Virus record (IMG/VR): IMGVR_UViG_3300036766_000644
Location: 1 to 48,684 of that record
Length of the DNA stretch: 48,684 nucleotides
Reading direction: 5' to 3' (one strand)
Source: a virus
The stretch's first letter is position 1; each line of letters opens with the position of its first letter. Shown here one piece after another: positions 8,084 to 11,715 of the stretch. The notes beneath the pieces were generated by a model, which worked only from the letters and a program-made list of their open reading frames with translations, ran no database searches and was not told the DNA's origin. The position numbers and the translations under genes were made by a program.

Positions 8084-8112
8084 AGCCGCCGTAGTGGTGG
8101 CTGCTTCTTTTT
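8084..8112 (+). terminator. intrinsic terminator with CC-GTAGT-GG loop
   Basis: Stem AGCCGCC / GGTGGCT, loop GTAGT, followed by GCTTCTTTTT. Confidence 0.55.
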
Positions 8113-8312
8113 GGGCCGAGCCCAAGAGCTGGAGATGTCCGTCGGACCCAAGGAGGAGTTCCCTGGCGGAGGCGCGCAATCAAAGTAATCGCTGTTGTCG
8201 AGCACGGGACTGAGTACCCCCAGTCCTCACCGCACATTGTACTTCACGCAAATCAGCCTACTGGTTGTTACCAGCGTCTCCGTAGCGGAGACTTCTTACT
8301 GCTGGCCTTCGG

Positions 8313-8335
8313 CCAATCTGATCTGATCAGATTGG
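8313..8335. repeat. perfect 23-bp palindrome CCAATCTGATC-T-GATCAGATTGG
   Basis: Exact inverted repeat containing two GATC sites. Lies in a 450-bp non-coding region. Confidence 0.8.
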
Positions 8336-8457
8336 TGTCGCCAGGAGCTCCAGCTCGGACCCGAACCTGGATCCGCATGCAGTCCCCTGGAGGAGCTCAC
8401 CTGGTGCGAGATGTAGAACAAAGTGATTCAAGCGTGAACTAGTCCTGAAGATCCAGA

Positions 8458-8483
8458 GCCTCCGTAGTGGAGGCCTTTTTTTG
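8458..8483 (+). terminator. intrinsic terminator with CC-GTAGT-GG loop
   Basis: Stem GCCTCC / GGAGGC, loop GTAGT, followed by CTTTTTTTGTG. Confidence 0.65.
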
Positions 8484-8565
8484 TGTGGGCCTAGCCCACT
8501 AAACGCTCGAGGGATGTCCGGGCCGGACGTTCCCAAAGTAGTGCACGCGTAACAAAGGAGAAGCC

Positions 8566-8874
8566 ATGCCTAGAGTGATCCTGTTTCCCGTAGGAGAAGA
8601 CGCGAAGGTGCTGATGCTCGAGAAAGGTCTCCAGCCGATGCAGGACCTGGTTGGAGGCTACATCGAGAACGTGACCCTGGAAGATGGGGTGGGCCTCATC
8701 TGCAACGAGGAGGGGAAGCTCACCGGCCTCCCCTTGAACCGCCCCGTCCCGGAGATCCACGATGTCATCCGGGGGCCGTTCTTCATCAGCCGCTACAACG
8801 ACGAAGGAGAGACTGTCGATGTTACTGACGGAGATGTTGCGAAGTATTCAAGGAAGTGGGCGCGACATGGCTGA
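8566..8874 (+). CDS. hypothetical protein (102 aa)
   Basis: RBS AAAGGAGAAG upstream of the ATG. Confidence 0.5.
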   Translation: MPRVILFPVGEDAKVLMLEKGLQPMQDLVGGYIENVTLEDGVGLICNEEGKLTGLPLNRPVPEIHDVIRGPFFISRYNDEGETVDVTDGDVAKYSRKWARHG

Positions 8875-9043
8875 GGTCCAGTTCTTCCAGACGGCCATGG
8901 GACGGACGTTCTTCGAGTACACGATGCCTGAGCTCGTACGGGAGCTCAAGAAGCTCAACGCGAACCTCGAGAAGCTCAACGAGAAGACCGAGTCCAAGGA
9001 GGTACTGCCCTATGTCGAACCCAGGGACGATGGAGGAAGATGA
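8818..9043 (+). CDS. hypothetical coiled-coil protein (alternative start 8868)
   Basis: ATG at 8818 after GAAGGAGAG, or ATG at 8868 after AGGAAG. Overlaps the upstream gene in another frame. Confidence 0.35.
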
Positions 9044-9266
9044 CGACGCGGACTACGGCGATCCGCAGGACGACTTCAACGATTACGACGATGACTTCGC
9101 TGACCCTGGTGGCGGTAGCGCCCTCAGGGCGGAGACCCCGGAGAACCCAAGGAACCTCCCATGCCCCAACTGCGGAACGGAGAACGTGCTGACCCCCAAG
9201 GACCGTGCTCTCGGGTATCAGTGCGACTCCTGCGCTGACCGGGCGGAGCGTGGAGATGCCTACTGA
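9012..9266 (+). CDS. acidic protein with C-terminal zinc ribbon (CPNCG...CDSC)
   Basis: Asp/Glu-rich N-terminus. CxxC-x19-CxxC at the C-terminus. Confidence 0.45.
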   Translation: MSNPGTMEEDDDADYGDPQDDFNDYDDDFADPGGGSALRAETPENPRNLPCPNCGTENVLTPKDRALGYQCDSCADRAERGDAY

Positions 9267-9589
9267 TGGGCCCCTATCGGCCGATCACAGACTGGATGCA
9301 GGTCCCGTCCAGGTTCCCCCCGGACTGGATCCCGTGCTCGAGCTGCCTCAAGCCGCTCGCAGCACACGTCGGCATGAAGTGTCCGTTCGACTCGACGGAG
9401 TTCCGCCCACAGGACGGACGAGAACTGTGGGAGACCTACGACGACGCGTGGAAGATCGCCACGTACGAGTACAAGTGGGCGCACGCCTTCGAGGATCTCG
9501 TCGTGGCGGACAAGGTCCGTTGCTACATGGAAGCGTACAAGAGGCGGCTACTCAAGAAGATTAAGGAAAGGGATCAACGTGGCTACTAA
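9266..9589 (+). CDS. zinc-ribbon family protein (paralog)
   Basis: TGATG coupling to the upstream gene. Contains CSSCLKPLAAHVGMKCPFDSTEF. Confidence 0.55.
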   Translation: MGPYRPITDWMQVPSRFPPDWIPCSSCLKPLAAHVGMKCPFDSTEFRPQDGRELWETYDDAWKIATYEYKWAHAFEDLVVADKVRCYMEAYKRRLLKKIKERDQRGY

Positions 9590-9806: not shown

Positions 9807-10339
9807 CTGACCAGAGCTACCTCGTCACGGCGCATAGCAACCAAGAGGGCTACAACTCTGATTGCGACTACTGCGTCGTGGACTTCACGCCGGAGCTCCT
9901 CGAGAAGCTCGCCGCGTGGAAGAAGGCGTTCCAGAAGGTGAAGAAAGCCCTCCCCGACGTGGACATGTGGAGGATCGGCTGCACCAGCGCGACCTTCGTG
10001 ACACGTAAAACCGTAGAGGCTTTCCTCGGGAACAAGCTGTTTGAGGCCATCGAGGAGGATTCGGAGCAGCTTCCGATCAAGATACCTAACCGCGACGACA
10101 TAGATCTGGAGAAACTAGATGCTACAGTGGCTGACGAAGTTTGTATGGGGCCAGCAGGGTTCTGGTTCGAAGGTGTCCCGCGCCACACAGACGGACTCGT
10201 CATCTCAAGCGACTACTTCCCGTGGGCCTGGTTTACTGAGTGCAGTAACTGCGGCCAGCCTCGCGACGTCCACGTCAAAGGAAAGTGTCTCTTCGCCCCG
10301 ACGAAGTACGCTTCGACGACCCCAAGGATAGGCCCCTAA
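9803..10339 (+). CDS. zinc-ribbon family protein (paralog), 178 aa
   Basis: ATGA coupling to the upstream gene. Contains CDYC and a C-terminal CSNCGQPRDVHVKGKCLFAPTKY. Confidence 0.5.
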   Translation: MTDQSYLVTAHSNQEGYNSDCDYCVVDFTPELLEKLAAWKKAFQKVKKALPDVDMWRIGCTSATFVTRKTVEAFLGNKLFEAIEEDSEQLPIKIPNRDDIDLEKLDATVADEVCMGPAGFWFEGVPRHTDGLVISSDYFPWAWFTECSNCGQPRDVHVKGKCLFAPTKYASTTPRIGP

Positions 10340-10713
10340 TGCAACGTTTGAAGGCACGTCTCACGATCGAAGAGTACGGGAGCAGCCGCCTCGGAAGTGG
10401 GGTCTGTAGGGCGTGCAAGAAGCCGATCATCGCGCACATGGGAGAAGAGTGTATGTTCGATTTTACCCAGCTAGACGCTGACCCGCTGGAGCGCATCTTG
10501 GCGGCGTTGTTTCAAGGGAAGCTGCAGAAGGACGCAAAGCTGACCTTGGAGATCATTGGCGGGGCTTCCGTGAGCTACTTGGTCAAAGCCTCCTCGTACC
10601 AGTACACCCTGTCCAACGACCCGCCGTACTACGAACTTGGGCGTCTCAGCCCCGTCACCGGCCGAAGTACAGGCGCGGCGGTAGATATCGAGCTCGTGGG
10701 GGTGGGCGGATGA
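10339..10713 (+). CDS. zinc-ribbon family protein (paralog), 124 aa
   Basis: TAATG coupling to the upstream gene. Contains CRACKKPIIAHMGEECMFDFTQL. Confidence 0.55.
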   Translation: MQRLKARLTIEEYGSSRLGSGVCRACKKPIIAHMGEECMFDFTQLDADPLERILAALFQGKLQKDAKLTLEIIGGASVSYLVKASSYQYTLSNDPPYYELGRLSPVTGRSTGAAVDIELVGVGG

Positions 10714-11045
10714 AGCTCCACGGCAAAAAGCACAGCGCGCGGATCCAGTACCTATTCCAACGCCGGGCGCTGGACCCTTGTGACAACTGCGGCAAGCTTC
10801 AGTCTGAGCACGCCTCCGGCAAGAATTGCCTCTTCGAAGCGACGCTCTTCAAGCCACAAGAGCTCCTCGTCTTCTTCGAGCAGTTACTGAGTAAAGGTGG
10901 CGTACTGACCATCAAAGTGGGGAACCAGTCCCTCATTCAGAAGATCCAGGCGCTCTCGGTGGTTCAGCTCGCAAACAGCCTCTCCGGAGAGATACTCACC
11001 GACGGGGATGCTTACCTTGGAGAGATCGATGCCAAGGAGCGTTAG
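10710..11045 (+). CDS. zinc-ribbon family protein (paralog), 111 aa
   Basis: ATGA coupling to the upstream gene. Contains CDNCGKLQSEHASGKNCLFEATLF. Confidence 0.55.
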   Translation: MKLHGKKHSARIQYLFQRRALDPCDNCGKLQSEHASGKNCLFEATLFKPQELLVFFEQLLSKGGVLTIKVGNQSLIQKIQALSVVQLANSLSGEILTDGDAYLGEIDAKER

Positions 11046-11268
11046 GAACTTCTTCCTCAACATCGACGTAGATGGAAAGAAAACGAGCGTAGCCACAGGC
11101 CCCCGAGGCAAGGGCGGTGGATTTCGCTGCCGCGTGCTGGTTCGGGCCGATGGACAGGTTCATCACGACGACCTCACCGTTGAAGGCGTCGTACGCCAAG
11201 ACGGGCTTTTAGAGCTCAAGGTGTGGGACGGCGGAAACGTAATCTTCAAACGCATAACGAAGAGGTGA
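11029..11268 (+). CDS. hypothetical protein (79 aa)
   Basis: ATG after GGAGAGATCG. Overlaps the upstream gene. Confidence 0.4.
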   Translation: MPRSVRNFFLNIDVDGKKTSVATGPRGKGGGFRCRVLVRADGQVHHDDLTVEGVVRQDGLLELKVWDGGNVIFKRITKR

Positions 11269-11270
11269 TC

Positions 11271-11543
11271 ATGGTCAAACCAATCTCGAAGCTCGACGCG
11301 GGGACAAAGAAAACATGGAAACTGCACCAGACGGTGGACGAGCTCCAGAAGTGGAGCGTGTACCTCCAGCTAAGCGCCGAAAGGTTCATCGAAGAGTTCG
11401 GTGGGTACAACTCTCGCTCGACCTTCTCTTCGCCCCACGAGCAGAAGGCGTACAAGGAAGTGATGGACACGCTGCTGCTCCTGAAGAAGGAGAGCACGCT
11501 GATGAAGACGAGGTCGCGGAGATTACACGGCCCTAGGAAGTAG
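11271..11543 (+). CDS. hypothetical protein (90 aa)
   Basis: RBS AAGAGGTGATC. Follows the upstream TGA by 2 nt. Confidence 0.45.
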   Translation: MVKPISKLDAGTKKTWKLHQTVDELQKWSVYLQLSAERFIEEFGGYNSRSTFSSPHEQKAYKEVMDTLLLLKKESTLMKTRSRRLHGPRK

Positions 11544-11601
11544 GCAGCACCCTCAGCACCCAAGTGGGATGTCACCGTATCGGCGACTGCAGTACCTGGA
11601 T

Positions 11602-11648
11602 CATCCTCGAGGGGTAACAAAGCCAAGCTTTGTCACCCCACCAGGATG
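11602..11648. repeat. long imperfect hairpin (about 22-bp arms, CAA loop) in 280-bp intergenic region
   Basis: CATCCTCGAGGGGTAACAAAGC-caa-GCTTTGTCACCCCACCAGGATG. Confidence 0.6.
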
Positions 11649-11698
11649 AGCCAAATGAAACGCAAATCAGTGAGGCCCTTAGTTCCGTTAATTTGGAT

Positions 11699-11715
11699 GT
11701 CGCCGTAGTGGCGAC
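11699..11715 (+). promoter_or_regulatory. hairpin with conserved CC-GTAGT-GG loop (no T-tract)
   Basis: GTCGCC-GTAGT-GGCGAC. This is the 4th member of the conserved-loop hairpin family. Confidence 0.5.

Follow-up and report, generated by a model that had tools for sequence, protein, structure and literature searches.

A family of GUAG-loop RNA hairpins in intercistronic modules of a clade of large uncultivated phages

Introduction

The IMG/VR virus record IMGVR_UViG_3300036766_000644 provides a stretch of 48,684 nucleotides (positions 1 to 48,684, hereafter the window) in which four short hairpins, located between positions 8,084 and 11,715, carry nearly the same five-nucleotide loop, GTAGT or GTAGC, on stems of different sequence. 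The question raised by this locus is why the loop should stay constant while the stem changes. The hairpins may be simple terminators, or, as was proposed in a first-pass annotation of the DNA, sites recognised by a protein or an RNase. The four hairpins are members of a real family, which has so far been seen in only one clade of large uncultivated phages. The evidence for this family, the larger structures that contain it and the explanations that might account for it are considered in turn.

Results

Four hairpins with a GUAG loop in the window

All four hairpins are on the + strand and intergenic. The first, hp1 (8083..8103), was listed as AGCCGCC-GTAGT-GGTGGCT at 8084-8102 of the + strand with one G.T pair; its core at 8085-8101 is GCCGCC/GGUGGC with one G.U, it scored 27.7 bits with a covariance model of the family, and it is terminator-like, with a U-rich tail immediately following. 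The second, hp2, is GUCUCC-GUAGC-GGAGAC (8276..8292, 32.6 bits) and has no conserved U tract. The third, hp3, is GCCUCC-GUAGU-GGAGGC (8458..8474, 33.4 bits), and is also terminator-like, being followed by U7. The fourth, hp4, is GUCGCC-GUAGU-GGCGAC (11699..11715, 27.9 bits), which has no U tract and is apparently a newer extra copy. The sites are two of the few long non-coding gaps in the rightward gene block, 8072-8565 and 11544-11825.

When the window was searched with the covariance model with filters off, the four hairpins scored 27.7-33.4 bits, the next match scored 13.9 bits and the remainder was noise. Both the sequence and the model thus place the four hairpins where the first-pass annotation had put them, and the search recovered exactly these four and one decayed copy. 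The core CCGTAGYGG occurs 7 times in the window against 0.77 expected, a number reached in 0 of 100 shuffles. The occurrences at 15345 on the - strand and at 17522 and 36850 on the + strand were rejected as members of the family, since they are inside coding sequence and form no hairpin. Furthermore, a GTAGY loop was present in 3 of the 25 window hairpins having at least 6 Watson-Crick pairs and a 5-nt loop, compared with 0.035 in block shuffles; hp1 is left out of this count owing to its G.T pair. In a search of the window with Rfam 15 only five tRNAs reached the gathering threshold, and nothing relevant was found in 7700-12200 even at E values up to 5.

Conservation of the loop and covariation of the stem in related phages

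Relatives were gathered from viral and metagenome contigs by pattern scans containing the motif and by a motif-independent protein search. The resulting set consists of the window and 14 related loci from at least 11 lineages; because the copies were read from parts of genomes of ~190 kb, their number, 55, is a lower bound. Every one of these copies has a 6-bp stem and 18 distinct stems were found, while the loop is GUAGU in 34, GUAGC in 20 and GUAGA in 1. The fifth base of the loop therefore varies, and the first four are constant in all intact copies. In the two closest contigs the three hairpins are again found before the DUF3846 gene, and a fourth follows 3-4 kb downstream. Paired changes have altered the stems of these copies, and the loop has stayed the same.

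The stems were compared position by position. In a structure-blind alignment of seven genomes, the hp1 stem showed GC/AU, UA/CG and AU/CG/GC/GU alternation; the six core pairs were never broken, the outer seventh pair was broken in 2 of the 7 genomes and the loop columns were invariant. The hp1 orthologues of 11 lineages have 8 different stems and one loop. The hp2 stem is identical in 10/10 lineages, including two loci found via the protein search, and hp3 has the variants GCCGCC/GGCGGC, GCCUUC/GGAGGC and GCCUUC/GAGGGC. When 25 distinct copies were aligned, double changes were seen at 5 of the 6 stem pairs and the stem covariation score was 0.657, compared with 0.19 in shuffles. Two pairs are nearly fixed in this alignment, pair 3 as C-G in 25/25 copies and the closing pair as C-G in 24/25.

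Many copies had been found with a pattern that contains the motif, so a motif-free search was carried out with the adjacent protein of 75 amino acids (75-aa protein). Two loci found in this way (L365 and L366, 67-71% amino acid identity) have GUAG hairpins at all three cluster positions, and the new stem GCCUUC/GAGGGC is present in them. A third (L363, 55% identity) has GCCUUU-GUAGU-AAAGGC 20 nt past the stop codon and a second copy further on. The ascertainment bias of the copy set is offset only by these three protein-anchored loci. Another relative found with the protein at 55% (L364) has no GUAG hairpin copy; in place of a hairpin, its downstream gap (6260-6400) has ~37-nt direct repeats, three to four of them (GGTGAGACATTGGGACGCCGG...), that are iteron-like. 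The motif was also not found in the region examined of Myxococcus phage Mx1 or in a more distant relative (L003).

The neighbouring proteins are 29-87% identical between the same genomes, yet GUAG is constant. Moreover, paralogous hairpins differ in stem and each orthologue group keeps its own stem where the proteins are only ~50% identical, so that the invariant loop cannot be put down to gene conversion or recent copying. The sole altered loop, the GUAUC of the decayed copy in the window, coincides with a stem mismatch and with a fresh copy 110 nt downstream. The GUAG loop is under purifying selection. The covarying stems and conserved loop that had been noticed in four hairpins are thus strongly borne out by 55 copies with 18 stems and an invariant GUAG, the protein-anchored loci included. 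Neither a loop that drifts in further copies and relatives nor an absence of covariation was encountered; GUAG was kept and the stems covaried.

Several unrelated metagenome contigs (L211/L226, L218/L230, L220, L221 and L212) carry longer hairpins of 11-14 bp with the centre CGTCTCC-GTAGC-GGAGACG. The number of such matches is about that expected by chance for the pattern, although the extended stems mark them as real hairpins.

The hairpins as sense-strand RNA

Every copy is co-oriented with the genes. On the + strand the stems contain about six G.U pairs, and the number of intact copies with an A.C pair is 0; the helices around the hairpins likewise carry + strand G.U pairs. Co-orientation with the genes and wobbles limited to the + strand indicate sense-strand RNA, not duplex DNA or a hairpin of the template strand. 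Members of the family are sense-strand RNA hairpins with a fixed length.

The possibility was considered that the hairpins are intrinsic terminators. In the window, the hairpins at 8084 and 8458 have T-rich tails (CTTCTTTTT and CTTTTTTT, respectively), that at 8276 has a weak one (TTCTTACTG) and that at 11699 has none. Over the first 10 nt past the stem, the number of T averaged 6.3 for hp1 and 7.1 for hp3, compared with 3.4 for hp2, 2.7 for hp4 and 3.4 for a second cluster found in relatives (cluster B, below). A U-rich tail (at least 7 T) is kept at the hp1 position in 9/11 lineages and a T-rich tail (5-9 T) at the hp3 position in 9/9, whereas 35 of the 55 copies are at positions without a U-rich tail. 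The first-pass annotation had taken two of the hairpins as terminators and two as something else, and this division holds. The predicted stability of the GUAG stems is -6 to -14 kcal/mol for 6-7 bp, while the clear terminators of the window have 11-13-bp stems. A terminator scan of the window listed hp1-hp3. It is plausible that hp1 and hp3 are intrinsic terminators, probably leaky. However, U tails that are kept only at the hp1 and hp3 positions and stems that are weak indicate that termination is not what defines the family overall.

The hairpins are parts of multi-hairpin modules

The hairpins are pieces of larger conserved multi-hairpin intercistronic modules, a point missed by the first-pass annotation. 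In the general plan, a closing helix formed by the end of the upstream gene and the ribosome-binding region of the next gene encloses the GUAG hairpin and a second hairpin. The module helices were predicted with RNAalifold, in the case of the first cluster (cluster A, 8063-8548) from an alignment of 7 genomes. Double or compensatory changes were present in 17 of the 87 predicted pairs in cluster A, 6 of 15 in cluster B and 15 of 40 in the hp4-type module. The region 8072-8570 (499 nt) folds better than shuffled sequences (z = -2.8). Several blocks, such as the palindrome at 8313-8335 and GTGATTCAAGCGTGAACTAG at 8423-8442, are invariant across genomes with ~50% identical proteins.

All of the cluster A elements are on the + strand. 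In module 1, the 5' strand of the closing helix, AGCGAUUA (8063..8070), makes 8 pairs with the 3' strand, UAAUCGCU (8186..8193), as predicted by RNAalifold from the 7 genomes, and overlaps the UAG stop codon (8069-8071) of the 75-aa gene. Two positions of this helix are compensated, one from U-A to A-U in L235 and the first pair from A-U to C-G. The helix encloses hp1 and a small second hairpin, UUGGGC-CGA-GCCCAA (8111..8125), which shows compensatory changes. In module 2, a small hairpin termed P0, CUGG-UUGUUA-CCAG (8261..8274), is directly 5' of hp2. It was read from the sequence and the alignment, a short complementary pair around a 4-6-nt loop being present just 5' of hp2 in every aligned genome; the P0 helix was not predicted by RNAalifold in cluster A. 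The second hairpin of module 2, UGGCC-UUC-GGCCA (8303..8315), has one pair compensated from C-G to A-U. A perfect 23-nt palindrome (8313..8335) has two GATC sites; as RNA it is the hairpin CCAAUCUGAUC-U-GAUCAGAUUGG and as DNA it is CCAATCTGATC-T-GATCAGATTGG. The palindrome is invariant in 6 of the 7 genomes and has a symmetric C-G to U-A change in L002; possible roles are those of an RNA hairpin and of the operator of a dimeric DNA-binding protein.

In module 3, the 5' strand of the closing helix, GCGUG.ACUA (8432..8441), is located inside the invariant block GTGATTCAAGCGTGAACTAG and forms 9 pairs with AGUAGUGCACGC (8537..8548), which is separated by 5 nt from the downstream AAGGAG, the ribosome-binding site of the DUF3846 gene (start 8566). 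Since this helix is invariant, covariation is evidence neither for nor against it. Enclosed by the helix are hp3 and two more hairpins, GUGGGC-CUA-GCCCAC (8485..8499), in which three pairs show compensatory changes, and AUGUCCGG-G-CCGGACGU (8514..8530), predicted by RNAalifold.

Other candidates in this region were rejected. A hammerhead-like CUGAAGA at 8449-8455 is not conserved in relatives. A mini open reading frame ending at the UAG of the loop was discounted, as the frames range from 2-99 codons, mostly without a start codon, and contain frame-breaking indels; small peptides encoded by the intergenic region show no in-frame conservation. A kissing interaction or pseudoknot of GUAG with a CUAC or CUA loop was dismissed because the partner is not conserved. 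The apex motif RGCCNAGCY is not enriched in the window.

The hp4 locus and cluster B

The elements of the hp4 locus (11544-11825) are also on the + strand. The closing helix of an older module, identified from the sequence and the alignment of relatives, consists of CCCUCA (11550..11555), downstream of the open reading frame (ORF) 11223-11543, and UGAGG (11671..11675). The corresponding helix of six relatives is CCCUCA/UGAGGG, its 3' strand being the ribosome-binding site of the next gene, and L363 has a compensated closing helix, UUCUCA/UGAGAA. The order of the hp4-type module in relatives is stop codon, CCCUCA, small hairpin, GUAG hairpin, long hairpin, UGAGGG and AUG. At the position orthologous to the intact hairpin of the relatives, the window has the decayed family member, GUCACC-GUAUC-GGCGAC (11571..11587), in which G4 of the loop is changed to U and one pair is an A.C mismatch (13.9 bits, E 0.14, match 11567-11591). 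The long second hairpin (11611..11639) has the apex AAAGC-CAA-GCUUU and many compensated pairs in relatives. The intact hp4 is in a ~150-nt segment, before ORF 11826, which the relatives lack, and a small hairpin read from the sequence, GCAGC-UUCUC-GCUGC (11725..11739), follows it. A decayed copy beside a new intact copy is evidence of module turnover.

Cluster B, found in relatives, is a tandem array of four or five ~195-nt units, each built as CCGGUACCUAYCCGG-C-[hairpin]-[second hairpin, apex AGC-CUA-GCU]. The array is downstream of the genes for DNA polymerase A and an RNase T-like exonuclease. In this cluster P0 was predicted, with UCGG/CCGA compensation, and there is a strongly covarying pair beneath the AGC-CUA-GCU apex. 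The cluster B flank CCGGTACCTAYCCG is not in the window. The polymerase/terminase region, where cluster B is located in relatives, lies outside the window as well.

Genome context and the adjacent 75-aa protein

The gene directly upstream of cluster A (7844..8071, +), a position that it invariably occupies, encodes the 75-aa protein, a conserved, basic, helical polypeptide that is a candidate partner of the hairpins. A GUAG hairpin is present after the stop codon of this gene in 11 of the 12 lineages examined. The protein has a basic N-terminus and the conserved core ATPLELAxxLKVPGxEARSxxVLYLREAYLAGYNF, and the 29 homologues found are all metagenomic. The AlphaFold model is a four-helix bundle with a pLDDT of 85. 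The gene downstream of the cluster encodes a DUF3846 protein whose closest relatives are on IMG/VR contigs of 187-194 kb, indicating that the window is a piece of an uncultivated large phage (lineage genomes ~170-190 kb). The gene content right after the cluster changes, with an extra gene in L201 and no DUF3846 gene in L235.

The window is ~60% G+C, with small + strand genes from 1-13.4 kb, including a tRNA cluster, and then large - strand genes. No DNA match to the window was found among GenBank phages. None of the 10 large window ORFs tested had a Pfam match and the PHROG matches were weak (for example, 22421-25204, 41916-43871 and 47112-48605 on the - strand). Among GenBank phages, the best protein matches were a structural protein of Vibrio phage D69 and Salmonella phage Arash, at ~34% identity, and the phosphoesterase of phage Mx1, at 38%. 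The lineage is very poorly charted. The idea of a Ro60/Y-RNA system, suggested by the TROVE protein of Mx1, was abandoned because no link to these contigs was found.

Several other features were observed. Five tRNA genes at 5798-6624, ~1.5 kb upstream of the cluster, comprise Thr-TGT, Leu-TAG and Gln-TTG on the + strand and two on the - strand, the anticodon of one of these being unassignable. Another hairpin family, with the shared 8-nt loop AGAACATC on different stems of 9-13 bp, occurs in the window at 1403-1436 and 7783-7814 (+), and in L204 at 708 and L209 at 2151. A T run comes next and, at 7783 and its orthologues, so does CGACTGGTATACAAAG, which is -10-like; the promoter-like sequence after these terminators was also written as TGGTATACAAAG. 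These hairpins appear to be canonical terminator-plus-promoter cassettes. The sequence GGTAYAAG (often GGGTATAAG, with GAGCCCC ~5 nt later) occurs 6 times in the window, compared with 1.0 expected, upstream of tRNA genes and small ORFs (5030, 5728, 5976, 7110 and 18260 on the + strand and 16005 on the - strand) and also in L003 (~5693) and L363 (~2056), and is probably the -10 region of the phage's promoter class. No GGTAYAAG or sigma-70-like promoter adjoins the GUAG hairpins in the window. A near-consensus sigma-70 promoter at 7078-7051 (-), TTGACA, 16 nt, TATTAT (11/12), points leftward and is back-to-back with the rightward GGTACAAG at 7110; the two possibly form a divergent control region. 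Within predicted ORFs at 920-990 (+) there is a tandem 12-nt repeat, (AAGAAGGCCTCG)n, and similar lysine/glutamate-rich repeats are found at 13120-13210.

Discussion

Comparison with known systems

By analogy, the element would appear to work most like a nut-type or operator hairpin, yet it departs from boxB in the features by which boxB is defined. The boxB of lambdoid phages is similar in having a short stem (5-6 bp) of variable sequence and a conserved pentaloop in nascent sense-strand RNA, and in its location in early operons near terminators with a small basic protein encoded alongside. However, the loops of boxB are GNRA-like (GAAAA, GAAGA or GACAA) and here the loop is GUAGU or GUAGC in 54/55 copies, with a final A in one. 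No boxA-like linear element was found, the upstream flanks of hp1, hp2, hp3, hp4 and cluster B having no common motif. There are at least 8 copies per genome, some of them tandem, and two copies have their own U tracts. No N-like protein was identified; the 75-aa protein, basic at its N-terminus, matches no family.

The MS2/PP7 coat-protein operators and the 3' stem-loop of histone mRNAs, the target of SLBP, share a constant stem length, a covarying stem, invariant loop bases and a few fixed pairs with the GUAG hairpins, which in contrast have no bulged base, have other loops and are multicopy in the operons of a double-stranded DNA phage. The RNase III sites of phage T7 are likewise conserved structures in the gaps of early polycistronic mRNAs and can leave message-stabilising hairpins, and the long second hairpins here (~20 bp with internal loops) resemble RNase III substrates as judged from their sequence, but the GUAG hairpin is too short for RNase III. 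We know of no loop specificity in bacterial RNase III. Intrinsic terminators resemble hp1 and hp3, which are GC-rich with a conserved U-rich tract right after a gene or before the next operon; the 6-7 bp stems, compared with 11-13 bp in the clear terminators of the window, and the absence of a tail from 2 of the 11 hp1 copies set the family apart. To our knowledge, the identity of the loop is irrelevant to termination.

The PeSL cassettes of T4-type phages are repeated intergenic stem-loop promoter/terminator cassettes (PMC4122927, PMC2839356). The GUAG modules are similar as repeated intergenic stem-loops in variable regions of large phage genomes, and they too are found at borders of gene insertion or loss (the extra gene of L201, L235 without the DUF3846 gene and the extra module before ORF 11826). 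Unlike PeSLs, they have no early promoter beside any GUAG hairpin, the stems vary while the loop is fixed and most copies lack a terminator tail; the present lineage, moreover, is not T4-like by any protein match obtained. We take REP elements, recognised by RAYT proteins, to be multicopy extragenic palindromes that contain GTAG. In REPs the GTAG is 5' of the palindrome, whereas here it is in the loop, and REPs number hundreds per chromosome compared with 4 per 48.7 kb. No RAYT or transposase domain was found in the scanned ORFs, nor any bacterial genome enriched in the motif among the matches listed. The hairpin promoters of phage N4 differ in that the wobbles favour the sense strand here and no RNA polymerase domain was found in the window ORFs scanned. 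CRISPR repeats differ in that the spacing here is 180-200 nt, with no conserved handles and no arrays among the genome-scan matches listed. Since the loop is not GNRA and there is no boxA, the element is not a boxB; likewise, it falls outside the PeSLs by having no adjoining promoter, the REPs by its loop GTAG and low copy number, CRISPR repeats by its spacing and missing handles and N4 promoters by its strand, and outside the Rfam families. We infer that it is a cis-acting RNA hairpin with a recognition loop read by a protein or RNase, a known kind in a new form.

Alternative explanations

The hairpins could be ordinary terminator or mRNA-stabiliser hairpins in PeSL-like cassettes, the loop being kept because it folds fast or stably on a short stem, or through the copying and exchange of cassettes by recombination, and not for a factor. 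This explanation is rather unlikely, though several observations fit it: the U-rich tails kept at hp1 and hp3 and the listing of hp1-hp3 in the terminator scan, the shifts of gene content at the module borders in L201 and L235, and the gain by the window of a new copy beside a decayed one. The second hairpin family, in which clear terminators with the AGAACATC loop are followed by the promoter-like TGGTATACAAAG, is also in line with it, as is the documented existence of PeSL cassettes (PMC4122927). However, most copies have no U tract, neither a sigma-70-like nor a GGTAYAAG-type promoter is beside the GUAG hairpins, and stems that are orthologue-specific at ~50% protein identity rule out recent copying as the source of the invariant loop. 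GUAGU and GUAGC were not among the pentaloops in the two survey papers found by text search, which gave nothing relevant. Furthermore, the fifth base of the loop varies and the first four never do. A less probable explanation is that GUAG makes a tertiary contact within a larger non-coding RNA, either a module of ~150-190 nt or the ~500-nt three-module region, that is ribozyme-, riboswitch- or scaffold-like. The conserved multi-helix modules with covariation, the sequence blocks more conserved than the adjacent proteins, the significant folding and the tandem modules near tRNA genes and after replication genes would all suit such an RNA. On the other hand, the modules contain no conserved complement of the loop (RCUAC), the loop of the second hairpin varies (CUA, CGA, CCA, CAA, UUC, UAC) with no matching change in GUAG, Rfam gave no match at E values up to 5, and the hairpin also occurs in a minimal single-module context of ~150 nt.

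An element acting at the level of DNA, that is, an extruded hairpin or cruciform or a palindromic site (an N4-like hairpin promoter, a replication or priming site, or a recombination site), is improbable. The copies are clustered, the small adjacent protein weakly resembles DNA-binding folds and CCG-TAG-YGG can be drawn as a 7-bp stem with a 3-nt loop, which is presumably the geometry of the N4 early promoter hairpins. However, the G.T pairs are confined to the + strand; in a hairpin of the opposite strand they would become A.C mismatches. The variable stem positions always stay complementary, which a duplex-binding protein would not need. The orientation, moreover, is always that of the genes, the long-range helices around the hairpins contain G.U pairs, and no RNA polymerase gene was found among the window ORFs scanned. 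Least credible of all is a decoy RNA that mimics a host hairpin, such as a CRISPR repeat or an rRNA or tRNA arm, and acts as a sponge for a defence or RNA-processing protein. The copies are multiple and tandem, and there is a superficial resemblance to what we take to be the type I-F CRISPR repeat hairpin, CUGCC-GUAUA-GGCAG. The handles of CRISPR repeats are nevertheless absent, the spacing is 180-200 nt and not ~60 nt, and a scan of the genomes of 185,579 species gave, among the matches listed, scattered singles in unrelated taxa and no arrays.

Proposed recognition of the loop by a trans-acting factor

The reading we favour, with a probability of roughly 45%, is that the GUAG hairpin is a sense-strand RNA recognition hairpin for a trans-acting factor and that at two sites it doubles as a terminator. 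The hairpins combine an invariant loop with a stem that is always 6 bp long and in which pair 3 and the closing pair hardly vary. This combination is characteristic of hairpins recognised by a factor, such as boxB, the coat-protein operators and the histone stem-loop, and it is on this basis that recognition is preferred. On this model, the RNA elements would be read on the gene-sense strand as a stem of 6 bp, free in sequence but paired, with a GUAG(U/C) cap. The multi-hairpin modules would fill the intercistronic gaps of rightward, early or replication-type operons in one phage lineage of ~170-190 kb, with the closing helix predicted to join the last part of the upstream cistron to the sequence at or beside the downstream ribosome-binding site. 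A phage or host RNA-binding protein, or a nuclease, may then specifically recognise the surface formed by GUAG and the fixed-length stem, the adjacent 75-aa protein being a putative candidate for this factor. At the sites with U tracts (8084 and 8458), the hairpin would also be an intrinsic terminator or attenuator separating the 75-aa gene from the DUF3846 operon. At 8276, at 11699 and in the tandem array after the DNA polymerase and exonuclease genes of relatives, it may be a mark for binding, processing or stabilisation. Marking of the intercistronic RNA could in this way couple or tune the expression of neighbouring cistrons.

Several observations weigh against recognition by a factor. No conserved nucleotide, such as a cleavage site might show, flanks the stem in the aligned copies. 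Selection of the copies as hairpins accounts in part for the 100% pairing seen in the 25-copy alignment. Cluster B, with 4-5 tandem units at an operon end facing a convergent terminase gene, is an ill fit to simple two-cistron coupling. The 75-aa protein has no Pfam or PHROG family match, and its model has no significant neighbour in the PDB, a weak likeness to winged-helix/helix-turn-helix repressors being insignificant. Moreover, this sequence-based analysis identified no binding protein, nuclease, cleavage site or antitermination machinery.

A bolder proposal, which we regard as somewhat doubtful, is that the hairpin is the cis element of a new phage RNA-control system, analogous to N/nut and structurally unrelated to it, in which a dedicated protein, possibly the 75-aa protein, binds the loop on nascent or mature mRNA and sets termination, read-through, processing or translational coupling at many modules of a ~190-kb genome, or else that the ~150-190-nt modules themselves represent a new type of structured RNA, repeated in tandem in these phages.

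Hardly any annotation exists for large uncultivated phages, and nearly all of the large ORFs tested here had no family match. A recognisable cis element that is present at many operon junctions and kept over deep protein divergence provides a handle on the punctuation and control of their transcripts, and a bait for the factor. If the loop is read by a phage protein, the two would be a new hairpin-protein pair, of the kind useful for studies of antitermination and as molecular tools. If it is not, the GUAG hairpin would still be a well-supported new structured RNA motif for the family databases.

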